Source of the DNA: Octopus vulgaris | Lineage: Eukaryota | Direction of reading: 5' to 3' | Assembly (NCBI GenBank): GCA_951406725.2 | Contig: OX597833.1 | Location: forward strand, 19,840,001-19,904,000 | Length of the DNA stretch: 64,000 bases | Shown: positions 1,446-64,000 of the stretch, piece by piece | Position numbering within the stretch: position 1 is the stretch's first letter | Layout of the letters: every line of letters starts with the position of its first letter | Made by a program: the position numbers and the translations under genes | The notes under the pieces: generated by a model | What the model was told of the DNA's origin: nothing | The model's database searches: none | The model's input: the letters and a program-made list of their open reading frames with translations, nothing else

Positions 1446-4400
1446 TCTATATATATAAAACTGAGAATGTGTGTCTGTCTGTCTGTGTGTTTCCCTAAAA
1501 CGCGAGAACTACACAGCCAATTTCGTTTAAATTTTACACATGCCTTACTTAGGGTCCAGGGAGTGTCATCAGCAAAAAAATTTTAACTTTTTCCCTAGGG
1601 CAACCCCATAGCAATATCATATCTTCTCCACTATTTCAGTATTATGTGTTAAAAGTGAAACAAAAACATCTCTCTATTGTAAAGCAGACACTTTCATTTT
1701 AATACTGAAACTATTAAACTGAAAGTATTATATAACAGGGATGAGCCATTAAAAGTGGTCATCCTTTTTGCTAGAAGATCAGCTATGGTCTTATATGCTA
1801 CACCACTGGTTTTCAATTCATATTAATCAACTTAATATTCAATTTTTCACCCTTATTATGTGTGTGTGTGTGTATTAGCAATTCATATAAAATTGCATCA
1901 ATGACTTGAACTTGAATAAGTGGTTTCACATAAATGGGGATAAATTAAAAAGGTTTGTTGTTATTATTATTACTGTTTGACTATTGTAATCACGTTTGTT
2001 GGTTCCTCGTAAGGGAAACATTGTTGTGTTGCATTTGTTAAATAATTGTAAACCATAACCCTCCCCCTTTCGGAGAAGGGGCTTTGATTATTGTTTAAAA
2101 ATTGAATTGTGTCCCTGTTTGGGGAAATTGACAATATTTTCACCGTCTTTACGAAAGCATTTTTGTTAAAATGCCTTCGATAGAAGAAAGTCCAACAATG
2201 AATTTCGCTGCAGCCGTACACTTCTATACAAGAGGAAGGACAAGATCCAATTGATCGAAATTACAAGAGACAGGCCTACAATTCCAGTCTGTTATATATT
2301 TTGAGTATTGTTATCACTAGCAATATCAAGATATAACTTTGTATTTTGTATTTTATGTGTAGATGTATATATATATAGATGTACATGTAATATGTACACA
2401 TATATATACACATATATACATGCATAATATATCTACACATACACACATACATAGGGGCAGGTGTGGCTGTGTAGTAACAAACTACATTCCAAACACATGT
2501 TCCAGGGTTCAGTCCCACTGTGTGGTGACTTGACATGTCTTCTGCTGTGGCCTCAGGCCAACAAAAGCCGGATCCATTCGCTCAAACCTTGCTGTATCCA
2601 CAGATTCCATTGTACTACACTTGGAATGGAAAAAAATGGGCCCCACGGAAAGCAGGTCAAAATGTTCATGGATACCCTGGCATTAAGTTTCACACTTGCC
2701 TTGGGCGAGTATACACAGTGCATCCCACTCAACAAGAGCGCTTCTACCTTCATCTACTACTGCATGAAGTCAGAGGGCCAACGTCTTTCCAGGCCCTAAA
2801 AACCATTCATGGACATGTCTGCACAACATACAGAGAAGCCTGCTATCGATAAGGTCTGTTAGAAGATGGTGCACAATGGGATGCAACTTTAGGAGAGGCT
2901 GCTTTATCACAATCACCTAAAAGTCTCAGGGCACTAGTTGCAGTATTACTACAGGCATGCGAACTGTGTGATCCAGCCACTCTATGGCTCAAATATAGAG
3001 ACAACCTGGCTGAAGACTTTCAGCGCCAAGCTCAACTGCTCTATCCTGACATGAAATCTATAACAGCAATGAAATCTATAACAAAACACTCATTGACATT
3101 GAAGACAGAATTGCTAAACTGGGTGGAAATGAATTGTCGATGTATGGCCTGTCACAAGCATTCAGATCAGGGTCAAATAGCCATCCCACTGCTGTCATTC
3201 ATGAAACAACCTACGACACTCAAGCGCTTTCAAAGTACATTATTGAAAATGAGCCTAATTTACTTCCGGACCAGCTGCAGGCCTACAGAACTATTCTTAA
3301 CAGTGTACGCCAATGCAAGGGACGAATCTTCTTCCTCGATGCTCTTGGAGGGACAGGAAAAACATTTATTACAAAGCTTCTCCTTGCAGAAGTTGGGTAG
3401 CATCAGGACATTGCAGTAGCTGTAGCCTCCTCTGGCATTGCAGCTACTTTGTTACCCGGTGGCAGGACAGCACACTCAACTTTTAAACTCCCTCTCAATT
3501 TAGCAGCATCCGAAATGCCTTCATGCAACATCAACAAAAGCTCAGATCAGGGACAAGTACTTAAAATGTGTCATCTAATTATCTGGGATTAGTGCACTAT
3601 GGCTCACAAGGGAGCTTTGGAAGCATTAGATAGAGCCCAGAAAGACATCCGAGACTGTCAGGCTCCAATGGGAGGTGTAACGTTTCTGTTGTCAGGTGAT
3701 TTCAGGCAAACTCTTCCTGTCATTCCGAAAGGCACTCAAGCAGATGAAGTCCAAGCATGCCTAAAGTCCTCAACCCTGTGGCATCATGTTACAATCCTCA
3801 GTCTCACCACTAACATGAGAGCTCAGCTACACGGTGACAAAATGTCCACAAAGTTTGCACAGGACATTTTGACACTTGGTGAAGGCAAGATGCCTCTCGA
3901 TGCTGCAGGACAAATGGAAGTGTGGTCATTTTCCTCTGTTGTTAATTCTGTAGATGACCTCAAAAACAAAGTCTTTCCCAACTTCACACAAAACTACCAA
4001 AATCACAATTGGCTGTGTGAAAGAGCAATATTAGCTCCAAAAAACGTCACTGTTAACAAAATTAATCAACAGCTAATGCATTCTCCTCCCGGCACTATAC
4101 ACACTTACAAGTCTTTTGATACAATTCCAGATATAAATGAAGTTGTGAACTATCTTCCTGAATTTCTCAATTCACTGGAGCCTCCTTGACTACCTCCACA
4201 CATATTAGCACTTAAAGTTGGAACTCCTGTAATACTACTCCCAATCTGGAACCACCAAGACTTTGCAACGGAACACGACTGGTGATAAAGAAAATGATGT
4301 CACAAGTTATCGAGGCAATCATTCTTTCTGGATGCGGAAAAGGGGATGACGTCTTTATTCCAAGAATTCCTCTTACTCCATCAGGAGCAGAAATTCCATT

Positions 4401-27852: not shown

Positions 27853-29672
27853 TCTCTTATTATAAAATCTCTTATTATAAAAGGCAGATTTTATCTGCCT
27901 CCCTTTGTATCTTATAGAAATCTACAATATAGGATTTCTTCAATTACAATTTACCTAGCATTTTTAAGAGTAGAATGCATCGGGTCGTGCCAGGTCCAGT
28001 TTTAAAATTTCAACCCCAATTAAGCAAAATTTAGAGAAAACTCACATTGTGGTGTATAAGTCAAATGCTTTTCTTAGTGTGGCTTACACCACACGCACAC
28101 GCACACACACAGTGTGCAACGAATAAAGTGAAAGTAATTCACTTTTTGTACTGAGTGACTCTTTCACTCTGCCACTTCCTCTTTACACACATAGACACGC
28201 AAATATATAAATGAAATTGTAAGCTAACGTGTGTGTGTGCGTGTGTGCGAGTGTGTGTGTGCGTGTGTGTGTGTGTGAGGGTGCGTGTGTGCATGTGTGT
28301 GAGTGTGTGACAGGAAAGTTTTTTAGGACGAATATAAGACCTATATCCAAGTAGCAGAAAGATCGCACAAAAGTGTATATAGATATTTAAATGTATTTAT
28401 ATATTCATCTATACACAGATGTATGTATAATGTGTGTGTATATATTTCCATACACGTAACCATTCACTCCGCACAAAGTTTTTTAGGACGAAAATAAGAT
28501 CTAAAGTTATCTCTAAGTAGCACAAAGATCGCCCAAAAGTGTATATAGATATATAAATGTATTTATATATTCATCTATGCACACATGTATGTATAACGTG
28601 TGAGTATATATTTCCATAGAGGTAACCATTCACTCCATACAAAGTTTTTAGCACGAAAATAAGATCTAAAGTTATCTCTAAGAAACAGAAAGATCGCCCA
28701 AAAGTGTATATAGATATTTAAATGTATTTATATATTCATCTATACACACATGTATGTATAATGTGCGTGTATATATTTCCATAGAGGTAACCATTCAATC
28801 CATACAAAGTTTTTTAGGACGAAAATCTTTATATATAAAAGAAAGGTTGTGTGTCTGTCTACTCCGATTTAGATTCCTAACTACTCCCACATTTTGCGAT
28901 GCAGTTTAACCAAAACCGGGTATCTTATAGTCGTGATTCATATCGAGCCCTTCTGGGTATTAGCGCGCGTCTACAATGAGTCTATGATTTTACAAATAAT
29001 TTACCATCATTTTTTTCCATTTTAATGCATATTTTTTTTAATAAAGGGAAGTAACTCTCAAACTTCACACCAATATGCGTGCTCATATCCGACGTAATAT
29101 CACATCAGCAGCATTTCTTCACACCCTCCTTGCACTTGGCGAAGGCAAAATACCAGGGGATGAAAATAGTAATATTGCCATCGATTCCATTTGTACCATT
29201 GTTAAGACGCCTTCTGATCTCAGAGATGCAGTGTTCCCAGATCTACAAGCTAATTATCAGAATATGGATTGGATTGGCAAAAAGGCTATACTGGGCCCGA
29301 GGAATAAAACTGTTCACCATATTAATGATGAAATGCTAAAACTCATTCCTGGGGAAGTCTATGTATATCAGTCTATCGATACAACTCCTGACCCAGAGGA
29401 CGTCATCAACTATCCAATAGAGGTACTCAATTCCTTTGAGCACCCCGGACTACCACCACACTTTCTCAAACTTAAAGTTGGTGCCCCTATAATGCTCATC
29501 AGAAATTTGGTTCCCCCAAAACAATGCAATGGCACATGTTTGATCGTTAAGTCCTTATCTCCCACCGTAAGCTTATATCAATATTTGCCTGAATAATCAT
29601 CATAATTCAGTGCAATCATTAACAGTACTTTCAAGCAATTCAGCCCCGAGCAACGCCGGGCAATTCTGCTAG
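27853..29672 (+). mobile_element. Composite non-autonomous Helitron with helicase remnant (~29060-29570)
   Basis: 5' TCTCTTATTATAAAA (duplicated); second Helitron 5' end at 28826; remnants AILGPRN and GLPPHFLKLKVGAPIMLIRNL..QCNGT; 3' hairpin CCCGAGCAACGCCGGG then CTAG|T. Confidence 0.85.
28315..28825 (+). repeat. Three tandem ~165-bp repeats inside the Helitron
   Basis: AAAGTTTTT(T)AG(G/C)ACGAA recurs at 28315, 28475, 28641 and 28806. Confidence 0.85.
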
Positions 29673-30246: not shown

Positions 30247-31610
30247 ATGTCTGGAGTATAGTGTCCACATCTCCAGAGGCATAAAATTCGCGCCAGTTTG
30301 GGCGTTGCAGCTCAGTACAATAAGAGCTCCAGTTTGCTTTATTCCAGTCAAAGCGGGCAGTCTGAAGATGGTTGTGTTTTTTGTTACAACCAATCAGAGA
30401 CAAGTCGGCCATGATCATGGAATGATCAGAGTCACCCAAAGGTTCTTCGGTAGCGACACTAATGATTGTTTCAGGAGAAGCAGTAAGTAGCAGATCCAAA
30501 GTGTTGTTACCCCTTGTGGGGGAGGTAACAACTTGGGACCAATTTGAATTCCGCACCAGTTCAAGGAAATCGTCTGCACTTTGATGGCCAACGGAAGGCC
30601 TCCCAGTCAATCTCAGGGAAATTGAAGTCCCCCGCAATATACACATATGTGGCTGTTTTCATGGCAGCCGCCCTGAGGATATCAAAAAGCTGTGCATCTT
30701 GGCGATAATTTGGAGGACGGTAAACGACTCCGAGCAGAAGTGTTGACATGGTCATGTGTATATTGCAGAAAAATACCTCCTGCTGAGATTGGTTCAAATC
30801 ATCACAGGGGATTGCCGATAGACTTGATTGAACATAAATCATCACACCCCCTCCACGGCGATTAATGCAGTCTTTGCGGAACAGGTTGTAGCCGGCTATG
30901 CTGAAAACTCCATCACAGAGTGCAGAGTGTGCCCACGTTTCCGTGACTGTGATGAAATCTGGGTTGATACTTTTGATGTAGGAGACAAAAAGATGCACCT
31001 TGTTGCATAAACTACGGGCATTCAAGGACAGCAGTTTATATCTGGATTTCAGATGATGATATACAGGGGATGGCTGATTGTTCTTGGTTAGTTTCCCAAG
31101 ATTTTTGCATTGCCAGTTGTTGCTGTGGGTGTAGTCTGCTCAGTCCAACTGGCATCCCTTATCCACGACTCACCAGACTTGACGAATTTCCAGATCTGCC
31201 CATCATCGCGGAGGCTAAAACTCTCCCGTGGCACAGAGTTGCAATTTAGGGAAGCCACGGATCTTAGCTTTGGGCGTACATCGGGTGGTAGGCCAGGACG
31301 TGTTCCAAAGTTGATAATGTTGTCACGCCGAGCTCTGTCAGCAGCCAGATGGAATGTCCGCGCCTCAGTAAAGCCCGTAAACAACAGCCTGATCAGCCTG
31401 GGTTTGGATCCCGGTCGGCCAAGGCGGGAAGCACTTTTTGGAGGGACACAGCTGAGATCCCTAGCTGTGTTTCCAATGAATGCCTGCAGATCTGCTACAT
31501 CTTCCGGCACTCCGATGGCTATTAATTCATGAGTGGCCGGTTCAGCAACTCCCTCGATGCGCTGAGGTTCTGTACGAGCTACAGGTAAGTTGCTGAGCAG
31601 GGCACTTCTA
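30247..31610 (-). mobile_element. CR1/L2-group LINE fragment: ORF1 C-terminus plus ORF2 APE endonuclease
   Basis: RLGR..KPRLI in ORF1; LNARSL, TVTETW, RRGGGV, GVVYRPP, IAGDFN, TLDLLLT, SDHSMI in the endonuclease; one frameshift near 30600. Confidence 0.9.
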
Positions 31611-39604: not shown

Positions 39605-39807
39605 CATATATACCTATATATACATACATACATATATATATATATACATATTTAGTATTTTTAGATTTAGTGTTTGAAGTGTTTTGAGTAGAGCACTGGC
39701 ACAGTCTGGACTCCTGGTGTATCAACAGGAGCTGGAGAAATGTTTCCGGTGCAACTAGTCTAGATAATACAACCATTAGAAACGCAGAAATGCTTTAAAA
39801 CGAAAAC

Positions 39808-39819
39808 TGCGCATGCGCA
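39808..39819. promoter_or_regulatory. NRF1/Ewg consensus site TGCGCATGCGCA in a CpG-retaining patch; candidate promoter of the caspase-like gene
   Basis: Exact palindromic consensus; unique CpG-rich sequence; strong donor GAA|GTGAGT about 180 nt downstream. Confidence 0.6.
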
Positions 39820-39829
39820 TACGAACATC

Positions 39830-40001
39830 TCTCGTCGTCCATAATACATACATAATCGGGAGTGGCCCGCGCATTTGTTTCTTTGTGAAATTACTTCTCC
39901 GAATCAAACGACAGCTTGTTCAAAATACCAGAGGAATTACCGTAAAACGTATTTCAGCTTATACTTTCTTAATTTACACCTTTGGGGACTACCGAAACGA
40001 A
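39830..40001 (+). other. Candidate non-coding first exon of the caspase-like gene (start approximate)
   Basis: Donor gtgagt at 40002; matching acceptor ttttttcttttgtag at 46556; linkage is inferred. Confidence 0.45.
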
Positions 40002-40280
40002 GTGAGTATTCAAAAATTGGCAATATTTTGTCATAAAAAGTAACTGTAATTGAAAAGAAAAGGCTTCCGCCCAGCAAAGTGAAATTTTACAAATTAATCT
40101 CTGTACGGCGATCTGTACTTTACTACGCATTTAATTAACCTAAAAACATCTCTGGAAAAACTTAAGAGATGGTGGTGGTGGTGGTGGTGGGGAATTAGAA
40201 TTCCGAAATTGCGATTTTTGCATTTTTTCTTTAGAGTGGAGGAGGGGTCGGGATACGCCTCCGCTCCGTTCAAGGTTTGG

Positions 40281-40706
40281 CGATCTTTCGTCTCTAGTAG
40301 ACCTTTCCGTCGATTTCCGTAAAAAAAATTTTCTTTTTTACATATGGGCTTGCGGGAACTTTTGAAGTAATATACATACATATACACATACACCGAGTAA
40401 AAAATTTCACTTATCTCTTTCTTTCACACATTACTCTGTCTCTTCACACACACTAACAGAAGCACTTCACTTACACAACATACTGTCTGTCACCCACACC
40501 CTATCAAACACACACACACACACACACACACATGTACATCAATGCTTGCCATGCACGGTAACTTCAAAAGAACTTCCCTCGTTATACAATTGCTTTCTCT
40601 TAGTCTCTTTCGCTCTCATTACTACAAAAGTTCCCCGCAAGCCCATATGTAAAAAAAAAAAAATTTACGGAAATCGACGGAAAGGTCTACTAGAGACGAA
40701 AGATTG
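40281..40706. repeat. ~80-bp inverted repeat pair, with a third partial copy at ~40870-40900
   Basis: ATCTTTCGTCTCTAGTAGACCTTTCCGTCGATTTCCGT..CATATGGGCTTGCGGG versus its reverse complement at 40625-40706. Confidence 0.8.
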
Positions 40707-42232
40707 TCCAAGGTTTTTTGGATCTTTCGTTTTGATCATTTTATTTTTTCTGGATAATAATTGTATGCATGTACGTATACATGACAACACACCCCTTCAC
40801 TCACGCTCAGCTGGAAAGATGATAAACCTTGTGTAGAATTAGCACTTCTTACAGTTGTTTTTCTTGTTTGGCAATCTTTCGTCTCTAGTAGACCTTTCCG
40901 TATCGCCCTTAACTTTGTCTTGCGACTGGCTCGATAAAAATAAAATAGAATTACAGATTTTTTTTTTCGGAATCGGAATCTCCATAGCGGGAAACATGGG
41001 TTTCCATAAAAAAAAAAAATTCAAGTGGAAGTGGGGTCGAGTTACGTCTCCGCTATGTGCATAGAAAAAATTATTTACTACTGAAATACTAAATTTAGTT
41101 TAACCTAATTATTTTCTAAGCAATGTCCGACTTTCTATTTGCTGTCAGGCAATGTTTATTCAGTCGCATTTTGTGATGTCGGGGGCGAAAATACCTTAAG
41201 CTAAGCCTGAAAGCAATGAAGTCATAAAAGAATCATCCATAACTTGCAGTAAGCAACATTTATTAAACGTTATTACGGTTATTTCTTTATTTTCTGCAAA
41301 CAAAATGCACAAAAATGCTACACGTTTGCATTATGCTATAGATACAATAATAATAAAGGACGTTACCGTATACATTTTTACAAGCCAAGGACGTTATATA
41401 GACCTCCTTGACTCAAGTTCGAGAAGGGGTGCGTATTATACACAATGTTTAGGTTTTTCAGAGTTACAGCCCCCTAATAATCCCCTGCGTATTATATACT
41501 CAAAGGCGGACTATACTCGAGGATTTACGGTAAATAGATGACCTGGAAGTTCTTGCTCTTCGATTAGAGCAATAGCTTTCTTCGGCTGAATACACGTCGT
41601 TGATTAGTTAAAATTACCCAAATACAACTTCAACACGAAACAACTTCTAAAATATGAAATTTTATCAACAATGTTGAAAGTAAATCGTGTTCAGAATGAG
41701 AAATTACACCAGTATACGAAGTTTCAAACTGTTTAGTTAAAAAACTTTTTTAATCTGTGAGTGAAACTAAAGAGATCCTTTGTTTACCCCCAACCCCATA
41801 TTCTTAATCTCCGTATTTTCCCACGTAGTTTGAAAAAAAAATTCGTAAAAAGTTTAAAATAAAAAATTTGGCGTATTTCGAATCTCCGTCATTGAACATA
41901 GGAATCCAGTGAAAAAAAAAATCATTTTGGCGACCGAGTGCTAAACTAGATCCTGAAAGTTACGAGGAGCTAAAAACGGATCGTGCAAACTTTCCGGCAG
42001 TCTTCTCCTCACCACTTCAGAAAACAATTCGGTCAAACTAAAGAGTTTGACCAGGTCATAAAAATAAAAAACAAAAAATAGTGTAATAGGTATAAAACAA
42101 CTTCCTCTAAACGAATATGACAAAAAAAAATGCGCGCTCGCGAAAGGGGGGTGGGGGAGAGGCCATCGGAAAATTCACTTCCTCAGTCCATGTCCTTTAA
42201 ACAATAGTGCTTGACTCGGGCCGGAACAAAAG

Positions 42233-43156
42233 AAAAATTCCTGGGAGAGAGGTGGATTCTCTTGGAATTCATTCCCACTACATTGTATATTGGGCAACTG
42301 TCTTCTGTTGTCAGCATAGTTAATTTCGTGATTGATTTGTATACACAATTTAAATAAAGCATTTAACGTATTCATTTAACGAAAATATAATCGATATCTG
42401 CGTTGTACGAAATAGTTGTGTGAAATAAATTGGATGACATAAAACGAAAGACTGGGAAAATAATCAGAAAAATATTCTCAGTATTCTGTTCTGTTACAGT
42501 TTAAATTTTTTCAAATACCAACCGAAGTATTAACTCTTTGTAATGGACAATATACTCAAAATGTTTTCTGCGGTGTAATTCCGTCCATCAAAAGGAAAAG
42601 AACCATATATATATACATATGACCCACCGGCGATCCCCACCGAAAGATCGCCCTTCAGCAACTGTTACGGAAATCCCTGAAATCGAATCTTGATCGGAAA
42701 TTTCTCCGCCCCCACAGGTAAAAAGAAGGTGGGTCATATATATATATATATATATATGGTTCTTTTCCTTTTGATGGACGGAATTACACCGCAGAAAACA
42801 TTTTGAGTATATTGTCCATTACAAAGAGTTAATACTTCGGTTGGTATTTGAAAAAATTTAAACTGTGTCTGAACAGAATACTGAGAATATTTTTGATTAA
42901 AAATTTAGGGTAAATATTTTTCTGATTATTTTCCCAGTCTTTCGTTTTATGTCATCCAATTTATTTCACACAACTATTTCGTACAACGCAGATATCGATT
43001 ATATTTTCGTTAAATGAATACGTTAAATGCTTTATTTAAATTGTGTATACAAATCAATCACGAAATTAACTATGCTGACAACAGAAGACAGTTGCCCAAT
43101 ATACAATGTAGTGGGAATGAATTCCAAGAGAATCCACCTCTCTCCCAGGAATTTTT
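42233..43156. repeat. ~400-bp near-perfect inverted repeat with 99-nt spacer
   Basis: 42233-42628 is the reverse complement of 42728-43156, apart from a ~27-bp indel, a few substitutions and TA-length variation. Confidence 0.92.
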
Positions 43157-43609
43157 AATTTTTGAAGACGTTTTACAGTTGTAGTATACTTTGAGCCAAC
43201 TAACCAGTAATTACAAAGGCAATGTTTATGAATATGTACATATTAAATATTGATGTTTTTCTTCTGCCGAAGAGATCAAGGACATTCAATATGTACTTGT
43301 ATACATTCGACGTTAATAAATGGAGATGTCGAACAGGCGAACACCTGCCCCATCTCCGCCCTTTTCTCTCCTCATCCTAACATTTTCGGTAATAGAAATT
43401 CCGAATCTGTTGGCGGAATTTCGGATCAGGATGCTCACCTAAGTTGGATTTTCTCCGATTTGACGAGGATTTTTCCCATCTTTTTATGGAAAAAAAAAAA
43501 AAAAATGAAATGATGGATTTTCCGATTAGTCTGTTTTATTATTATTATTATTTATGAAAGCAAATTGGCGGAGGTTCGGAACTGGACAGCTCATTTAAGT
43601 TGGATTTTC

Positions 43610-43691
43610 GGCACTGTCATGCTTTTAGCTGTCAGCCAGCTCGACGTAAATACACGAAGTTGACAACTTTCACTTCTGACAGCTAAAAGCA
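43610..43691. mobile_element. Tiny MITE whose right TIR was split by an inversion
   Basis: GGCACTGTCATGCTTTTAGCTGTCAG ... CTGACAGCTAAAAGCA; the missing outer TIR part lies at 45016-45025. Confidence 0.6.
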
Positions 43692-44370
43692 AGGCTTTTT
43701 CACTCAAAAGAAAATATTTAGTATCAATCAACGGTTTTATCTTGTCAGAGAATTTGGGAATCCATTCAGAATAATACGCAAATAGACCAACAATTCGACT
43801 CAATGCTTTGTGTGTACTAGGAATAGGTAGTTCTAGTAAGGGTTTTACTTGGTCAGGGTCAGGTTTCAGCCAAGCAATCGAATCCGTGTAGTGCTGTAAA
43901 TGCATTTGGTATCATTAAAAGTTAAATTACAGTCCTTAGCAACTTGAAGAAAATGCTTTAAATTTCGATCATGTTCTTCCTTCGATTTACCACACACAGT
44001 TATGTTGTCGATATATGCAAAAGTAGCTCTACAATTATGGCTTTCGATTATATTATCGATCACTACATTTGTAAGTCCGAAAGCAATACGTTTGCTTTGA
44101 TATAATTTTCCCTGCGCTTCGAAAGCCGTGTAAGGTCGATCTTTCAACTGGAACCTCAACTTGATGATGAGCACTTTTGAGATCTAGTGTGCTAAAATAA
44201 TTAAACTGAGCTATTTTTGTGACCATGTCATGCATATTTGGCAGTGGATATCCATCTAATTGCGTAAACTATGGGTTTACAGTCAGAGCTTAAATTTTCA
44301 AACAACCTCGGTGTAATGTCACTTAGAGCTCCCAAATGTAACGGGGGCTTATCGCCGTCAAAGGTAATTT
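43692..44370 (-). mobile_element. Ty3/Gypsy reverse transcriptase relic
   Basis: YPLPNM..FSTLDLKSAHHQV, TAFEAQGKLY..FGLTN, YIDNITV.GK..EHDRNL, GLFAYYSEWIPKFSDKIKPL; frameshifted. Confidence 0.9.
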
Positions 44371-44410
44371 GTACATGTTGATTTTCTGTTTTGATGGGGA
44401 TTTATCCAAT

Positions 44411-45014
44411 TTTTTTTCACCTCACACTCCAGACCGATTTTGGGGGCACTTAAAAACCACGTGAGAAGCCTTTTCAGTAAAAAAAAAATTTGTAAATATT
44501 TTCAAACGAAAAGTTGTGTGATTTAAGGGAGATTTGGCTATTGTTTCTAGCACATCTCACGACCACCTTCCTCGTTTCTTTGTCACCCTCACATGTATTG
44601 ATGTTTTTTCAATATTTTTCTCCCATGAACACATTTGTGATATTATAAAAAAAGATTTTTAATTTATGATTTTTTTAATCCTCACCATTTTATAATTTCA
44701 AAATACTGGATAATCTGAGACGGTCATTGATCCAGCAATTTAAATAAGAGATATGTAAAAGATAATTTATTTTAACTAAGAAATATTGAAAAACATCAAT
44801 ATATGTGACAATGACAAAGAAACGATCAAGGTGGTTACAGGATGTGCTAGAAACAACAGTCAAATAAATCTCCCTTAAATCACACCGTTTCGTCTGAAAA
44901 TAATCGTTTTTTTGGGGGGGCTTTTTTTTTTACTCAAAGATTTCTCACATGGTTTTTAGGGGTGTAGTACCAAAACAATTGGCCAAAATCGGTCCGAAGG
45001 GCTAAGTGAAAAAA
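44411..45014. mobile_element. MITE with long imperfect TIRs
   Basis: GACCGATTTT..ATTTAAGGGAGATTT..TGTTTCTAGCACATC versus GATGTGCTAGAAACA..AAATCTCCCTTAAAT..AAAATCGGTC. Confidence 0.7.
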
Positions 45015-45040
45015 GGGCACTGTCATGCTTTTAGCTGTCA

Positions 45041-45590
45041 AGCCTTCCTTTCTCAATAGAAACAGACACATCGGAGGTAGCTATATCTGGCATTTTACAC
45101 CAAAACGGGAAGCCAGCTGCATTTTTCTTTTCAAGAACCCTCAACCCATATGAGCGTCGTTATTCTTGTATTGAAAAAGAGGCGACAGCGATTGTGGAAT
45201 CTGAGAAAATGGTATCATTTTCTTCTTGGACGTAACTTCACACTAATAACTGATCAAAACAGTGTGGCTTTTATGTTTAATTTTCAGAAGCGCAGTAAAT
45301 CTAAAAACGGAAAGATAATGCGTTGGCGAATCGAACTAGCCCAGTATAAATTTGATATCATTTACCGCCAAGGCAAGTTTAATGTTGTATCTGATGCTTT
45401 ATTGTGCAGCTACGACTGATAATGAACTGTATCGTATTCATGCAGCGCTGTGTCATCCTGGGATCACACGACCTTACTCTGTAGATGATGTAAAGCGTAT
45501 AACTAACAATTGTGTAATATGTTGTGAGGTAACCTCTGTTTCGTCAGTAATTAAATCTACTCAAGCTTTTGAAAGATTCAGTGACCATTT
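45041..45590 (+). mobile_element. Ty3/Gypsy RNase H and integrase zinc-binding relic
   Basis: IETDTSEVAISGIL.QNGKP, SRTL..ERRYSCIEKEATAI, FTLITDQ, KIMRWRIEL..YKFDIIYR.GK.NVVSDAL, H..LCHPG..C..C. Confidence 0.88.
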
Positions 45591-45964
45591 TTTCCTAAGT
45601 TTTGTAGTGGTCCTATATAGTTGAATGATCTCCCTTGCAAGAAAGTGTATAGAGTAACCCCCCTTTACTAAGTTTCTTGAGACATGAGTCATGAGATGTG
45701 ATTCTTAATTATTCAAGAAGCTTCGCGTTTCTCTTGGAAGTTTCCAGAATGTCTAGCGTACCAGTTATAAAAACAGCTTGCTAACCCTGCTCTACGCCAC
45801 ATGACTGAAAGCCATCACTGAGTTGCTATTTCTATATTTCCTATCTCTGAACTTTCTTGCATAGATTACTTCATTCAACTAGATTCTGCTGCCACAACTA
45901 CATCAAGAACGATAACATTCAAGAGTCTTTTAATGTCTTGTCATTTGTAGTAACAACGATATCT

Positions 45965-46185
45965 AGCTGGCAGAAACGTTAGCACGCCGGGCGAAATGCG
46001 TAGCCGTATTTCGTCTGCCGTTACGTTCTGAGTTCAAATTCCACCGAGGTCCACTTTGCCTTTCATCCTTTCGGGGTCGATAAATTAAGTACCAGTTACG
46101 CACTGGAGTCGATGTAATCGACTTGATCTGTTTGTCTGTTCTTGTTTGTCCTCTCTGTGTTTAGCCCCTTGTGGGTTATAAAGAA
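45965..46185 (+). mobile_element. SINE family B (head GCTGGCAGAAACGTTAGCACGCCGGGCG)
   Basis: B-box GAGTTCAAATTCC; other copies at 35580, 37965, 53745, 54935. Confidence 0.85.
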
Positions 46186-46641
46186 ACAGATATCTGTGTT
46201 TGTGTACAAAAAGAATAAAATTTTGTTCAATCAAAAATCACAACCAACTCCATTGTTCTTCATACACAAAGAAAAAACTTTTAACAGAATGAAACAATGT
46301 TATGAAGATGTATATAAAATCAAAATAATATGAATCTTATAGAACCTAATATTTCCATAGGTCTTGTAAGTTATTATAATAATGTGTCTATCCCACTGAA
46401 AGTATTGTCTTCAAGGATGAAGAGCACTATAAGGAATCAGTGCTAAGTAGCATATTACTGGAAACTGAAATATTTGATTTATACAAATGATTAAATGTTA
46501 ATTTTCAAATTTTGTAACTCATTTTTAAAATGTTTCTCACTTTTTTTCTTTTGTAGCTGCTTGAATCTGCAGCCATCTCAAAATACAAAAAATATCTGAA
46601 TTTATTTACATATATTTATAACAGCAAACAGAAAAACAACC

Positions 46642-47433
46642 ATGTCATCTGCCAGTATTCAAAGAACCGAAAAAGTATATACAGACAGTGTACCTGTTGA
46701 CCACAGTCTAGATGATATTAGTTTAAATGGACATGATATATCTTACTCACCAGAGCATTTAGTATATGATATGGAATATCCTACAAAAGGTTATGCTCTA
46801 GTCATTAACAATGAAGTATTGTCATTTGGTAATGCTCGCGAAATCTCGAGAGAAGAGGTACATTCTATGTCGGATACACTTAAGATGTATGGATTTAAAG
46901 TTATCACTCGGAACAACTTGAAGGCTTGTGACTTCAGACAGATATTTAACGACGTCAGCAAACTGGACCATTCAAAATGTGCTTCTTTTGCTTGTATTAT
47001 TCTAACCCAAGGATTACAGTCTAGTACTATTCAATGCTCTGATGAAACTATCTCACTAACAGAGTTATTACCAATGTTTTCCCCCAACAAATGCCCAACT
47101 CTCGTTGGTAAACCTAAATTATTTTTCATTCAAAATGCAGACACATTAGCAAATAGTGCACACAATTCACAACTTTATAGTGATTACAAAGTTCCAATGA
47201 TTTCTTTATATGAAGATATCCTTATTTCCTCTTGTACTGTAAGCTCTGAGAGGAGAGTTGGAGGCTTTATTGAGATATTAAGTAACAGCCTGAAGAACTG
47301 TAGAAAGGTGGAACTGCTTTCTATTTTAATGGGAGTCAATTACGCCATTGTTTCTAAGTCCAAGAACAATGGTTCAAGAACTAATGCCCCTTCTATACTT
47401 TCAACTTTAACAAAACAAATGACATTCTCATAA
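46642..47433 (+). CDS. Caspase-3/7-like (peptidase C14A fold) protein, 263 aa, predicted catalytically inactive; intronless CDS
   Basis: YDM...GYALVINN, GFKV...NNL, DHSKCASFACIIL, CPTLVGKPKLFFIQ, DIL..., FIE.L...L, P...STLTK; dyad positions are Q123 and A166; good Kozak context (AACAACCATG); in-frame upstream TGA at 46597; acceptor at 46556. Confidence 0.92.
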   Translation: MSSASIQRTEKVYTDSVPVDHSLDDISLNGHDISYSPEHLVYDMEYPTKGYALVINNEVLSFGNAREISREEVHSMSDTLKMYGFKVITRNNLKACDFRQIFNDVSKLDHSKCASFACIILTQGLQSSTIQCSDETISLTELLPMFSPNKCPTLVGKPKLFFIQNADTLANSAHNSQLYSDYKVPMISLYEDILISSCTVSSERRVGGFIEILSNSLKNCRKVELLSILMGVNYAIVSKSKNNGSRTNAPSILSTLTKQMTFS

Positions 47434-47569
47434 CCTCATTGGTATCCCTCATTTTCAATCTTCTGTGGTAATGGGGGAATGGGGACTCCAAAAGAGATCT
47501 CAGGGAGTAGAATCTCTGCATTCCTGAGTTAGTTTTCCACTACAATTCTGCAAACAAAGAGACTTGGAG

Positions 47570-48075
47570 AAGCCATTATGAAAGACTGCTGAATGTGGAG
47601 AATGAATGAGAAGAGGAGAGTCTGCCAAATGTTGACCCAGTAGAGGGACCAGCTATCCCAATAGACAGCTCTTTAGTAGATAAAGCAATTAAGGATATGA
47701 AGACAGGGAAAGAACCTGGCCCATCAGGAATCGCTGCTGGGATGCTTAAAGTATCTGGTGGTGTGGGCTATGGTCTAGTCACCCGCATTGTAAACCAGGT
47801 AGTTCATGATGGAGCCATACCCAATGACTGGCATAGCAGCACCATAGTCATCTGCTACAAGGGTAAAGGTGATGCTCTAGATAGAAATAACTACAAGGGT
47901 ATTAAACTGCTGGATCAGGTGATGAAGGTCACAGTGAGGGTCATAGTCCATCTCATTAGGGAGAGTCTGCTTAGATGAGATGCAGTTTGGTTTTATGCCA
48001 GGCAGAAGCACCACCGTACTTGGCTTTTGTTGAGTTGGAGAAAGCCTTTGACAGAGGAATTCGATGATGACGATG
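47570..48075 (+). mobile_element. RTE LINE ORF fragment
   Basis: KAIKDMKTGKEPGPSGI, IPNDWHSSTIV.CYKGKGDALDRNNYKGIKLL, QFGFMPGRST. Confidence 0.85.
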
Positions 48076-48279
48076 ATGAAGCAGGTAAGAACATATATGC
48101 AAGTTTAAAATGCAACATTGTTTTTGTTTTATCTACATTCTACACATACACATAAGAACAAGCACGCAGTTGACAAGACAACACACAGCTGATAAGACAG
48201 CATGTCCTCACGGAAATTAGTGAAGCAGTCTGTTTATAAATTGTCGACTCAAAACAAAAGATAGCCTTCATTTTTTTTT

Positions 48280-48645
48280 GATAAGTAGCTTGTTTACGAA
48301 CCACATGGTTCCGGGTTCAGTCCCACTGCGTGGCATCTTGGGCAAGTGTCTTCTGCTATAGCCCTGGGCCGACCAATGCCTTGTGAGTGGATTTGGTAGA
48401 CGGAAACTGAAAGAAGCCTGTCGTATGTATGTGTGTGTGTTTGTGTGTCTGCGTTTGTCCCCCTAGCATTGCTTGACAACCGATGCTGGTGTATTTACGT
48501 CCCCGTCACTTAGCGGTTCGGCAAAAAGAGACTGATAGAATAAGTACTGGGCTTACAAAGAATAAGTCCCGGGGTCAATTTGCTCGACTAAAGGCGGTGC
48601 TCCAGCATGGCCGCAGTCAAATGACTGAAACAAGTAAAAGAAAAA
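48280..48645 (+). mobile_element. SINE family A
   Basis: Family match. Confidence 0.88.
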
Positions 48646-48829
48646 TAAAAAAAAGAAAAGAAAATAATTATAAAGATGTAATTATAGTTAAGGGCTACTG
48701 GTAATGACCATCACCAATGCTAGTAATAGGTGTCAAATACCTACAGTCCACTCTACAGTTTGTTTTCTCTCTCTCCCTCTTGTACTTATTGTATCATATT
48801 ACTCATTGATGTGCAGTTTTGTTTTGTAT

Positions 48830-49105
48830 TATTGTGTTTGATCTTGATGTTCATATGTAGTTGGTTAATAAATTATGTGAATGGGTATTATCTGGTAGTT
48901 GATTATTGATTTAGATGTATTTCTCCATTTCCTTATTTTGTATTATTAATTTGTGGTAAAACATTTTACCTTCGCCCATATAATACAATAAATGAATTAA
49001 TTGCATCGCAATTCTTAACATTTATGTATTAACTTTGTTGGGTGCTTTACTGGCAGTATATTGGATGGTGGGTTGCACTCACAACCCCTATCTCAATTTG
49101 TATAT
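48830..49105 (+). mobile_element. AT-rich relic of the same family as 58500-59320
   Basis: Shared TTTCTCCATTT, AATACAATAAATGA, CAGTATATTGGATG and AACCCCTATCT blocks. Confidence 0.6.
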
Positions 49106-51626
49106 ATATATACATAAACATACATATAAGTCTTTGTATAATAATTATTTCTAATTTCAGATATTTATTATAAAGTTTGAAAGTGAACCAAGAAGGAATG
49201 AAAATGGATCAAGAAGTACTGGTAAACAAAGAATGCAGAAATAGCAAGTCAGAAAATATTGAATATCAGAAACCAGTCCTACAAAGATAAACTATTATTT
49301 ACAGTACATAATAAATTTGAGCAAATTGGATCCATCTGCTATGCACAAAGGGCTCAAACATTTACCCAGACTCCAGAAATTAATAAATAGAACTTACAAT
49401 GAACTAGTCACTAAAAACTTTTCACTCATATTAAGCAACTATAAAACACAAATACACAAAAAAAAATATATATCACTCATATTACCTACTTTTGCCTTTC
49501 CTTTCCATGCTGGCATGGGTTTGATAGGAGCTGGCCAGGCAGGAGCATCCAGCAGTGGACAAATAGGAAAATGAAAACATTCTGCTCATATTGAGCAATC
49601 GTAAAAAAGAAATCGCGAAATGAAAATCTTACTCATTTTAAGCAACAGTATACCTATTTTGTCCACCCTTGTGTATTACATATTGTAAAGTAAAACAAAT
49701 AAACAGAAAATTCACATAGAAACAACCTGTTTTGTTTTGTTTATTAATTATTTAAACATAATTTGTTATAATGAAAGAATTGTTGTACATTTAATGGTGT
49801 AAAAATCGGCAAGTACCACGTGTGACATGCTATGCAGCTGAAGGGTTGAACTGTTTGGTTAGCCTGGTTGCTGGAAGCAATTCTGGCTTCAGAGTAATTG
49901 TGGTACGACCAGATTTCTTTAACAGGTAAGTATTTTTTGCTAATCCCTCCCTTTCCAGAATTGATCATTCATGCAAACCAGTGTTTCTCAACCAAGTTCC
50001 ATATGAGATTGGGGTGGTGTAGTGGTGGTCCATGCTACAAAATAATAAACTGGGCATCCACAAAAGAATTGTAAGGGGCCCTGAGAAAACTTTGCTTTAG
50101 ACGTATGTATTAGTACATATTGCAAAGCTGCTAGGTTTCTTTCTCTAACATTTTACATAGTTCAACCTACACAAATTAATATCATCATCATCGATTAATG
50201 TCTGCCTTCCATGGTTGGATGGGTTGACAGGAGATTGCACTTAACTTTTGTGTCTGTTTTGGCATGGATTTTGCAGCAGAATGGACAGTGCTTTTTATGT
50301 GGTAAAAGCACAGGAAAAGCCAGTTTTGGCATGGTTTTTACAGCTGCATGCCTTTCTAAATGCCAACGACTTTACAGTGTGGACTGGATGCTTTTTATGT
50401 GGCACCAACACTAGCAGAGTCACTAAATAATTTGCAAAGCAAAGATGTTTTAAGAGGAGAGGAGGTGATCTTGTGTCAGATGATGAAAGGTTAGTTTGAC
50501 AGAAACAGGTGTCTTGTAGAGGAGGTGCATGGTTACCCAGCCAGAAAGAGAAAGTGATCAAGAATGAGGACAGAAACAGGTGTGCTGTTGTACCTGGTTA
50601 TCCAGCCTGAGGGAAGAGAGATGATAGCAAAGTGCTGGGGCATACTCAAGGAACAGGAATCAAAATGTAAACGGGATGGTAAAGGAAGAGAGAGGTAGAT
50701 GGCGGCAGGTGTCAGGGCATACCCTCAAGGAACAGAGGTCATAATATAAGTGGCAGGGTATTGCCAAAGAAGTATAAGGCCAAGAGTAATGCAGTGACTG
50801 GTAGAAACTTGAGTATATAGAGGGTGAGGGACTACGAGATAGCAATGAAACAATGGGCAGTGCCGTGAGGACAGAATTGGAGAGTGAGAGATAAGCACAG
50901 TGCAGGAAAAGAAATGTGAGGAAGAGATATAGTTTAGTTTGTTAGTGAAGGGATTTTGAAAAAAGTTTCTATAAAACTATTTTTTAAACATCAAATGGCT
51001 AGAAGAGTGCAACAGAATAAAATAGCAATCAAATATATAGATTGGCCTGCTCGCGTAGCCAGCGGGGTGGCATCATTTGAAGGCTAAAACAATGCGAAGT
51101 GCATTGTGGCCAGCGAGGTGTAGCAACATCTGATAGCCTGGTCACTCACGGTGATATAGATAGATAGATACATAGATAGATACACAAACCAAACCCAAAA
51201 TGCCATGCACTAAATCTGGCACCAAAATATGTGAAATTCCATAACACACACACATACATAACCATGTGTACATATGTGCAAATATGAACAATTGAGTGCA
51301 CATGGTTGTGTGTGTGTGTGTGCACATATGTGTGGATGTGCATATATGTGTGTATATTTTTATAAATTTGAATTAATGCAATGGAAATATATAATTGGGA
51401 GTGGTGTATGTTGTGTGTGTGTGTGTGTGTGTATGTATAAAAAAAGGTTAAACAAAAGTACTCAAACACTAGAAATAAAACTTAGATAAAAAAGAAAATG
51501 GTTGAGAGCTCTAAACAATATTATAAGAGCGTATGAGATTTATTAATTTCTCTGGTTTTATTCATTGAGGAAAGTGGAAAATATTTACTACTTGAAATAT
51601 ACTTGGACAAAATTTTATTTTTTTAC

Positions 51627-61968: not shown

Positions 61969-64000
61969 TCAGCCATTCAATTTGGGGGAGGACTTAGTTA
62001 TGATGTATTTTTCCGTATTCCTCCTGAAGGAAGTGTCATTTTTTGGACATTTGTAGAAGGGAAAGATCTTAAATTTTCCTTCTCCACATGTATCTAGGTG
62101 TTTACTCAGTGGTATCTTGCGCAGTTCCTCCTGTTGGACATGTTGTCGGTGAATTCTGGCTCGTTGGCATAAAGAATTTCCAGTTTCACCTATATAATCC
62201 TCCTTGCATGTGGGGTAGGTTATGTAGTATATTACGTTCTGCATCTTGCAGTTCATATCTGCATTTACTTTGAATATGTGACCACTTTTAAATTTCATTT
62301 CTTTGTCTCCCTCTATGTATTTGTAGGTGGGGTTACTGCAGATCCCATATCTACCATCTCCGCACTCTTTTACAAAGAATTCAGTTTTAGTTTCTTATGA
62401 GAATTTTCACTCTTGTTAGGTGTTTCTTCAGGTTTTTGTCTTGTCGTCTACTGTTTTTTATGCAATATTTGTTTAGTATGTTTTCCATTTTGTGGCTTTG
62501 TAGGACTTTGTAGGTTTGAATGTATGATTTGAAACATATTGGTAACTCCAGGGTTGTGTGTTTATGAAAGGGATAATGTTTTCTTTGTTTTTTGTTTTGG
62601 GTGTCCTAAGTTGTGTGATGTCCAGTTTCATTGCTCTTGAGATTCCATTTTTTATTAGTTTAAGGGGGTATTTTTGTTCTAGTAGGAAGTTTTTAAGTTC
62701 ATCTAGTCTTATTAGGTGTGTTTGTGAGTCAGTTACTATGCTGCATATGCATCTTGCCATACTATATGGGATGTTTCTTTTTATGTGGGATGGGTAGCAG
62801 GAGTAGAAAATTAAATATTGGTGTGTGTCGTTTTTTTTGTAGTGGATGTCTGTTGTGATGATGGAGTTGTGTATCTTGATGTTGATGTCTAGGAAGGGAA
62901 GTTCGTTGTGGCTGGTATCTATTGTGAAGTTGATAGATGGGTGCAGTGTGTTGAGGATGTTGTGGAATGTTCGTAGGTCTTCTTCTGATCTGTTCCAAAA
63001 GATGAAGCAGTCATCGAGGTAGCATTTCCATTTTTTCTTGATGTATTCTCTGAAGTCATATTTGAAGACTTTCCCTATTTCATCATATAGTTTGTTCTCA
63101 AGGAAACCCATCACCAGGTTGGCATATGGAGGTGCGAATTTTGTACCCATAGCCGTGCCCTTTATCTGTCGGTATGTCTTGTTGTTGAATGAGAATGTAT
63201 TTTCTTCGAGTATTAATTGGGTGGCTTGGGTGATAAAGTCTGTCTTGAAACATTTATCTATGAGTTCCCTGTATTTTTCTACCGATTGTTCTATTGCTTC
63301 CAGACCTAGGGTGTGTGGTATGTTCGTGTATAAGTTTGTGACATTGAAGCTTGCAAGTGTGGTGTTTTTCGGAACTGTATTTGGAATGTGTGTGAGGAAG
63401 TCTATGTCATCCCTTATGTAGCTTGGTATCTGTGGGCATAAAGGTTTGAGGAGTACATCTATGAAGTGGCTTAGTTGTTGTGTTGGCACCTGGGGCCCGC
63501 CACTATTGGTCTCATCGTGAGGTCTGCTGGCCTTTGTATTCTTATATAATGGTTCCTCTGTTCCTTTATGGCTCTCTGTATTTCAGAGCTTTTATGAACT
63601 TTAGGTAATCCATAAAAGTTGCTATCTTTGGTTCTTGAGTTGCATAGATAGTCTTTCTCCTTATCTGTAAAGGAGTCCTGGTATTCATTGACAAAAGTTC
63701 TAATTTTTTTTTCATTGTTGCTTTCTCCGGTGGTGTTGGTTCCTCTTTATAGTATGTCTGGTTGTTCAGCAACTCCAGTATCTTTTCTTTGTAGTAATCT
63801 GTATCCATAATTACTATTGCTCCACCTTTGTCAGCTTCTTTTATAATGATCAACTTGTCATTTTTCAGTTTTTGTAAGGCTTGTTTTTCTCCTCTGGGGA
63901 GATTCTGTTTGCATTTGTGTGTGTTGAGAGGGAATTTAAATATTGTCTCTATGTATGCGTCAAGGTGTTTGTCACTTCCCTTGTGAAATGGGATTTTTTT
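61969..64000 (-). mobile_element. Penelope-like element, RT plus GIY-YIG endonuclease, frameshifted; continues beyond the window
   Basis: IIIKEADKGGAIVIMD, FNVTNLYTNIPH, QIKGTAMGTKFAPPYANL.MG, YLDDCFIFW, LPFLDI; NVIYYITYPTCKEDYIGET..QRARIH. Confidence 0.93.

Follow-up and report, generated by a model that had tools for sequence, protein, structure and literature searches.

A conserved octopod pseudo-caspase with a putative latent IAP-binding motif in its prodomain, a candidate caspase-activated IAP decoy

Background

Dead caspases are already known in molluscs, insects and nematodes, and the known pseudo-caspases act, to our knowledge, by binding other caspases. c-FLIP (CFLAR) has a dead caspase domain and a regulatory role, and CSP-3 of C. 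elegans resembles the small subunit only. CSP-2 and CSP-3, the latter without an active site, are caspase homologues reported to inhibit apoptosis (PMC3591282). In Aedes aegypti, CASPS18 is a short-prodomain effector-type caspase, dead after a lineage-specific duplication; this paralogue of Decay has been described as a caspase-like decoy and is regarded as enhancing CASPS19, its active paralogue (PMC4840389). Expanded caspase families, some members of which have lost His or Cys, are found in Mytilus and Crassostrea, and mutated caspases have been called ubiquitous in bivalves (PMC10967218). A squid caspase with a QANSV pentapeptide has been listed (PMC9389742), and three further papers mention octopus caspases and, in the portions available, describe no dead ones (PMC11543851, PMC10959488 and the skin-mucus proteome of PMC11431876).

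Smac/DIABLO and AK2 carry a four-residue N-terminal motif that is exposed by proteolysis, and the sequences SVPI and SVPA bind BIR domains. Smac is reported to bind as a dimer, and the structure of SVPI bound to XIAP BIR2 has been solved by crystallography, with Ki values of 4.62 for XIAP BIR3 and 12.02 for BIR2 (micromolar according to the prose of that paper) against 0.71 and 5.24 for AVPI; Ser at position 1 binds ~2-6 times more weakly than Ala (PMC3760131). The neo-N-terminus of human AK2, SVPA, pulls down BIRC2, BIRC3, BIRC6 and XIAP and serves as a degradation signal, leading to IAP-dependent ubiquitination and degradation (PMC12152192). In fly effector caspases such motifs are exposed when the prodomain is removed, in drICE and Dcp-1 on the p20 subunit (PMC2373516, PMC13679926), and in active drICE the exposed IAP-binding motif (IBM) is required for binding to DIAP2 BIR3 (PMC2373516). 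In the literature covered, which included few subscription papers, we found no description of the pseudo-caspase clade presented below, nor any of an inactive caspase that works by way of an IBM.

Here we present an octopod pseudo-caspase, P0001, encoded in a window of 64,000 nucleotides from Octopus vulgaris (GenBank assembly GCA_951406725.2, contig OX597833.1, positions 19,840,001 to 19,904,000 of the forward strand; coordinates below count from the first letter of the window). Its origin is independent of that of CASPS18, and both of its catalytic residues, His and Cys, are changed, as are the S1 Arg and the L3 loop; its clade spans Octopus and Argonauta and conserves a putative latent IAP-binding motif. 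CSP-2 and CSP-3 act on the long-prodomain CED-3 zymogen, and P0001 differs from CSP-3 in having a full p20 and p10. An identity with c-FLIP was rejected, since the tandem N-terminal death effector domains (DEDs) of c-FLIP are absent; P0001 has instead a prodomain of 41 residues behind an upstream in-frame stop, and Peptidase_C14 is its sole Pfam domain. drICE and Dcp-1 are active caspases whose motif lets IAPs restrain them, whereas the octopus motif sits on a dead enzyme, where its binding would be limited to titrating IAPs or bringing about degradation of the carrier. The folds of Smac/DIABLO and AK2 are unrelated, and it is not a caspase but mitochondrial import peptidases or DPP8/9 that expose their motifs.

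Results and discussion

A caspase fold with a dead active site

A first-pass annotation, made from the letters of the window, had described an uninterrupted 263-codon frame with the p20 and p10 motifs of an effector caspase, Q123 and A166 at the His and Cys sites, and an altered and shortened SWR loop in p10. The frame, the two codons and the remodelled loop were all found in place.

46642..47433, + strand: coding sequence (CDS) of the 263-aa pseudo-caspase P0001, comprising short prodomain, p20, linker and p10
46837..46839, + strand: R66, S1-pocket arginine column, unconserved in the clade (R,R,C,G,A,E)
47008..47010, + strand: Q123 (CAA) replacing the catalytic His; Q,Q,R,R,V,V in the clade
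47131..47145, + strand: QNADT replacing QACxG, with A166 (GCA, 47137) replacing the catalytic Cys; A,A,A,A,A,T in the clade
47227..47259, + strand: L3 substrate-binding loop, residues 196-206, remodelled and shortened in the alignment, with the clade-specific invariant C198
47386..47424, + strand: C-terminal strand, residues 249-261, 12/13 invariant in the three Octopus-type sequences and 6/13 with both Argonauta sequences

The profile search that the annotation had called for matched residues 49-260 to Pfam Peptidase_C14 (PF00656) over the full model (E 7e-27), and the protein also matched solved caspase-3 chains of the PDB (best E 7e-19). AlphaFold2 with a 100-row alignment returned a mean pLDDT of 80 and a pTM of 0.78, residues 1-31 falling below 50; this model was used, and an earlier one built on 5 aligned sequences (pLDDT 36) was discarded. 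Foldseek placed caspase-7 and caspase-3 at the top of its matches, with probability 1.00, and the ESM Atlas yielded generic caspase clusters only. By homology, then, the protein is a caspase (Peptidase_C14A).

Its active site is another matter. In at least 90% of the rows of the 100-row alignment the columns of Q123 and A166 are occupied by His and Cys, and the two residues fall in the same columns in a 75-row alignment, so that the His-Cys dyad is absent. The S1 pocket of active caspases, formed by two Arg and one Gln, keeps its Gln in 6/6 clade sequences and its L1 Arg in 2/6. A YSWR-type L3 loop is likewise missing: the loop of P0001 is ~5-6 residues shorter, and the Arg is gone from the position after the Cys site. 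P0001, a duplicate-derived caspase homologue that has lost its catalytic residues and kept its frame, is, judged from its sequence, a true pseudo-caspase.

Activity could in principle have been kept through a nucleophile relocated to C132 or C198. Both cysteines are invariant across the clade (6/6) and seldom occur in active caspases, and C198 lies on the strand before L3; against this, the only conserved His is the structural H110, common to active caspases, the S1 Arg column is unconserved and the L3 loop is shortened. We regard an active enzyme of this kind as extremely unlikely.

A single-copy gene with introns in both untranslated regions

Contigs from 4 public runs (23 listed), none of them on record as RNA, were placed on positions 39700-51100 and, together with signals in the sequence, give the following gene structure.

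39780..40330, + strand: CpG-rich putative promoter / first-exon region, CpG observed/expected 1.45 vs 0.58 for the whole window
39905..40001, + strand: non-coding exon 1, 5' end approximate; joint 40001->46557 with 97 letters on its short side, run X19 only
40002..46556, + strand: intron 1, in the 5' UTR, 6555 nt; GT..AG joint in 1/4 runs, polypyrimidine tract and TAG end
46557..48084, + strand: exon 2, from contigs and sequence; 85-nt leader with in-frame stop, entire CDS and ~650 nt of 3' UTR
48085..49160, + strand: intron 2, in the 3' UTR, 1076 nt; GT..AG joint in 4/4 runs, GTAAG donor and CAG acceptor
49161..49719, + strand: non-coding exon 3, AATAAA at 49698; contigs of 3/4 runs end at 49706-49719, the true RNA end not being visible in contigs

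The donor of exon 1 reads GTGAGT, and neither this exon nor the exon 2 leader contains an ATG. A GC palindromic motif at 39808-39819, which we take to be NRF1-like, has its single exact match in the window there. In the other 3/4 runs the contigs run unspliced over 46557, so the 5' end is variable or intron 1 is retained in them. The joint of intron 2 was listed as 48081->49158, and moving the cut by +3 gives 48084->49161; one contig of run X9 spans the 3' half of the CDS together with exon 3. The genome holds no second close copy able to yield the joined form, the next match scoring 115 bits at 36% identity. The joints in 4/4 runs point to spliced RNA, and the pseudo-caspase gene appears to be spliced and single-copy, with introns in both UTRs. 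The annotation had called it intronless, which stands for the CDS, contained within one exon, and fails for the gene as a whole. Because exon 2 has an in-frame stop after its acceptor and ahead of the ATG, no upstream domain is fused to P0001; a longer form fused to a DED or CARD at this locus was accordingly excluded, and a protein search over all lengths found none close.

Several further features of the region were seen. Joints lacking GT..AG occur at 47644-47766 and 47850-47991 in 3/4 runs, in the 3' UTR and within a LINE-like fragment; they are probably deletion alleles. At 47300 the window has G (C220) and 3/4 runs have T (F220), with Phe also in P0002-P0004, which is likely a polymorphism. 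Decayed mobile elements lie at 3593-4186, 29045-29593 and 45081-45416 on the + strand and at 30561-31136 and 62473-63579 on the - strand, and include PIF1-type helicase fragments, presumably Helitron-like, endonuclease, reverse transcriptase and RT RNase H fragments; that at 45081-45416, an RT_RNaseH fragment, is among the retroelement fragments held by intron 1.

The caspase family of the octopus genome and the origin of the copy

A search of the genome with P0001 gave 45 matches, and 44 loci were examined. They include 34 further full-length single-ORF caspases (at least 240 aa), clustered mainly on contigs C5, C19 and C28; 28/34 retain both His and Cys and 6/34 do not, so that the genome holds at least 35 full-length single-ORF caspases, 7 of them without His or Cys. 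Two loci, L036 and L040, resemble single exons of intron-containing genes.

The largest group is a tandem cluster of 23 matches at C5 54.15-54.52 Mb (L002-L021, L023, L044), comprising 16 full-length single-ORF caspase-3/7 genes with His and Cys intact, the others being broken copies. A second, divergent clade of single-ORF caspases occupies C19 7.04-7.13 Mb and C28 3.0 and 6.29-6.38 Mb (L024, L025, L027-L029, L031-L034, L037-L039, L041-L043); in it L025, L027, L041 and L042 lack His and/or Cys, and several members have Glu or Thr for the Gln of the pentapeptide. A third dead caspase, strongly divergent, lies on C7 at ~8.76 Mb (L035:1527-2273, + strand; P0279), with Y in the His column and T in the Cys column, relatives in O. 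sinensis at 90% identity or more and no IBM-like motif seen. Also noted were L026:1471-2322 (- strand) on C5 at ~76.01 Mb and L030:997-2217 (+ strand) on C20 at ~59.54 Mb, the latter a 406-aa single-ORF caspase with a very short linker and a long N-terminal region that appears CARD-like by eye.

The annotation had suggested a retrogene. Since the 34 paralogues are also single-ORF, an uninterrupted CDS is the norm of the family, and together with the UTR introns this makes a retrogene origin nothing specific to the P0001 copy. With two UTR introns, closest paralogues that are single-ORF too, and a grouping with the bivalve caspase-3/7 clade that was rejected (below), the suggestion was abandoned: we infer that duplication at the DNA level accounts for the copy more simply than an independent retroposition event does, while an older retroposition may lie at the root of the family. 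An acceptor-like site near the ATG was flagged in only 4/34 paralogues, too few to show a shared 5' UTR intron.

Relatives, phylogeny and constraint

Five close relatives, regarded as orthologues, were found: three Octopus-like ones, namely one from O. sinensis (99% identity), one from O. bimaculoides (83-84%) and a Logan protein (72%), and two from Argonauta hians, P0008 and P0009 (45-47%). With P0001 they form a clade of six sequences, of which the 5 non-redundant ones entered the tree. The catalytic His and Cys are absent in 6/6, the frame is open in 6/6 at identities down to 45%, and in a 38-row tree the clade has support of 100/100, its stem measuring 1.63 changes per column. An old catalytic loss followed by retention of the frame, as first proposed, therefore fits the clade well, as does the proposal of a conserved, catalytically dead short-prodomain caspase; disrupted orthologues, which had been named as a possible refutation, are absent among the five relatives.

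In the 38-row tree, from which 37 rows were left out (the long branches L026, L030, L035 and L042 among them), the pseudo-caspase clade stands beside the octopod single-ORF caspases with support 63/65; in a 75-row tree whose careful search was unfinished, two long branches joined. AU tests rejected neither a grouping with C5 (p 0.097) nor one with caspase-8 (p 0.31). What the tests did reject was a union with the four-row clade to which the bivalve caspase-3/7 rows belong (p-AU 0.018), and orthology between the octopod clade and the mutated caspases of bivalves is not shown. The best scores of P0001 within its own genome are to C5 proteins. On prodomain similarity alone, C5 supplies 11/13 of the best rows, two non-C5 rows being equally good, and the prodomain aligns to those of C5 as QRxE...DSxPxD. 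By these likenesses the parent lineage appears to lean toward C5.

Among 1.84 billion representative sequences no orthologue from squid, cuttlefish or Nautilus was found, only P0003, P0008 and P0009 exceeding 43% identity, and a profile search gave none among the best 120 of 403 matches; within the limits of this sampling, the clade may be restricted to octopods.

The intact frames bear on whether the gene might be a relic that is transcribed but barely, or not at all, constrained. Several observations point that way. Identity between Octopus sequences is 84% for P0001 vs 95% for a single-copy active caspase, and identity to Argonauta 45-46% vs 71%; on these sequence comparisons the protein seems to be diverging about threefold faster than active paralogues. 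All 3 CDS differences in run X19 change an amino acid, three SNVs being too few to estimate selection. The intron of the 3' UTR begins ~650 nt past the stop, and an intron far past the stop can trigger nonsense-mediated decay in some animals. Against a relic, a neutral simulation of one lineage without indels left the frame open in 85, 10 and 0 of 1000 replicates at 84, 72 and 47% identity, and with 5% indels in 3, 0 and 0 of 1000; because the real frames are intact beyond this limit, we conclude that P0001 is under selection. In addition, 78 domain positions are invariant over the 5 non-redundant sequences. A relic is very unlikely.

A conserved motif in the prodomain

Outside the caspase domain, conservation is concentrated in one short stretch of the prodomain, where the annotation had placed a possible processing site, YTD|S, correctly assigned to D15.

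46675..46698, + strand: residues 12-19, VYTD|SVPV, a conserved putative caspase cleavage site at D15 and, directly behind it, S16-V19 as a putative latent IAP-binding motif

We take the aliphatic P4, the Asp at P1 and the small P1' of this site to suit caspase cleavage. The Val-Pro-Val that follows is, as a sequence, unneeded for cleavage and matches IAP-binding motifs, for which the expected pattern is (A/S)-x-P-hydrophobic behind a protease site (specificity tables in PMC3760131); D|SVPV or D|SVPI occurs in 5/6 clade sequences. TD|SVP(V/I) is kept in these 5/6, the full form being (V/I)(Y/F)TD|SVP(V/I), and P0004 has SVPI exactly. Over residues 13-19, 5/7 positions are invariant among P0001, P0003, P0004 and P0009, against 1/11 before and 1/22 after. 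In Argonauta P0009 the prodomain carries the motif twice without change, and a variant, D|SAPD, lies in a duplicated insert in the L3 region, although that insert may be an artefact of annotation or assembly; in the other Argonauta protein, P0008, a motif of the D|SVP(V/I) type is absent. The longest exact octopus-Argonauta match in the prodomain is 6 residues, a length reached by 1/5000 shuffles. A strict D-then-IBM pattern, defined after the motif had been seen, is present in 8/140 caspase prodomains, 5 of them from the pseudo-caspase clade, and in 0.3% of shuffles. The low model confidence of residues 1-31 is consistent with an exposed tail. Related arrangements exist on contig C5, where 13/16 full-length paralogues have DxxD|A near the N-terminus, two of them as D|AKPI, and where a second dead caspase has the N-terminus DYSD|AKPT.

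Because the four residues after YTD form a Smac-like motif, a pro-death decoy is favoured over an inhibitor. In the explanation that we prefer, to which we give a probability of roughly 0.4, P0001 is a caspase-activated IAP decoy, with a caspase-3/7 fold, a dead site and a conserved D|SVPV. Once translated, the protein would be inert until an active caspase cut it at D15; the cut would expose a Smac-like N-terminus, SVPV, predicted to occupy the BIR grooves of IAPs, and the restraint of IAPs on the active caspase paralogues would be lowered, making P0001 a feed-forward sensitiser to death with a net pro-caspase effect. The caspase fold would hold the bait in a folded, probably dimeric state, so that two motifs could be displayed as in Smac. 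This reading is supported by the retention of the motif amid unconserved prodomain flanks and by its repetition in P0009; it is weakened by the absence of the motif from P0008, by the weaker binding of Ser1 than of Ala, by the faster evolution of the protein relative to active paralogues, and by the AK2 precedent, in which a motif of this type is a degradation signal.

The last point leads to a related possibility: the cut at D15 might do no more than hand P0001 to IAP ubiquitin ligases, switching off a non-catalytic scaffold once caspases fire. AK2, whose SVPA drives its IAP-dependent ubiquitination and degradation, is a precedent (PMC12152192). The octopus IAPs found carry RING domains, and 12 clade-invariant positions that are rare in active caspases, e.g. 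T129, Q131, C132, M186 and C198, suggest a new surface. The two to three tandem copies of the motif in P0009 would, however, better suit a titrating bait, and we consider a role solely as a degron improbable.

Octopus IAPs and a model of the complex

Candidate partners for the decoy are encoded in the same genome, in which 26 BIR matches were found, including BIR3-type domains of RING-bearing IAPs. In a cluster of three-BIR, RING-bearing IAPs the third BIR resembles a vertebrate cIAP BIR3. A search of the genome for the Smac_DIABLO family gave 0 matches, as did its controls, and so carries no weight as to absence. This cluster, at C2 40.77-41.03 Mb (L045, L046, L048, L049, L052-L064), contains about five three-BIR IAP genes, with the third BIR split by an intron; P0274 has an altered groove.

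Residues 16-46 of P0001 were modelled with an octopus BIR3 (P0264 residues 311-395) and zinc, without use of their own alignment. The complex scored 0.38, in the range of weak support, vs 0.09 for the best of 3 controls, on a scale whose mark is reached by 51/78 solved complexes and 2/108 mismatched pairs and for which peptides lie outside the calibration; passes at scores of 0.60 or less comprise only 5/78 solved complexes and all 4 of the mismatches that passed (of 180). Runs agreed in at least 68% of contacts, with a partner pLDDT of at least 45. Since solved Smac-BIR3 complexes exist, the pass may stem from the memory of the model, and what it indicates is likeness, not binding.

Why keep the whole fold?

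A lone peptide could serve as bait, and the decoy reading does not by itself explain retention of the fold. A possible answer, which follows the model of the annotation, accounts best for that retention and would be compatible with a decoy role, is that P0001 regulates active paralogues by forming heterodimers with them, inhibiting or enhancing their activity, with D|SVPV either inherited or secondary. Precedents are CSP-2/CSP-3 (PMC3591282) and CASPS18 (PMC4840389, PMC3141678). The entire fold is kept, with its pLDDT of 80 and its matches to caspase-3/7, and 42 of the clade-invariant positions are shared with at least 60% of active caspases. Residues 249-261, which we take to be the dimer-interface strand of caspases, are nearly unchanged among the Octopus-type sequences (12/13), and the 28/34 full-length paralogues with His and Cys are potential partners. 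Once Argonauta is included, however, the strand, with 6/13 invariant, does no better than p20 (53/124), and it is also part of the fold core; a helix motif beside the interface has diverged from the NRxVAYE of the paralogues; and the island of conservation at residues 14-19 and its repetition in P0009 are left unaccounted for. As an account of the protein, heterodimer regulation seems to us somewhat unlikely.

Conclusions

The decoy reading can be carried further. The octopod dead effector caspase would then be a caspase-switched, Smac/Reaper-like IAP antagonist and feed-forward amplifier that co-evolved with the expanded caspase and IAP clusters, with the motif repeated in Argonauta, and that was perhaps invented twice, since the second dead caspase, the one on C5, begins DYSD|AKPT. 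We hold this wider proposal to be doubtful. Were the motif inert, P0001 would still be an ordinary new pseudo-caspase.

If true, control of IAPs by a dead caspase, exerted via a motif that cleavage uncovers, would follow a different regulatory logic from that of the pseudo-caspases known to us, and would turn the enzyme's own inhibitor-docking site into a self-amplifying switch. The dead octopod proteins carry database names such as 'caspase-3-like' and 'caspase-7', and could be mistaken for executioners in expression studies. The expansion of single-ORF caspases in the octopus is relevant to regeneration, immunity and post-reproductive senescence in these animals.
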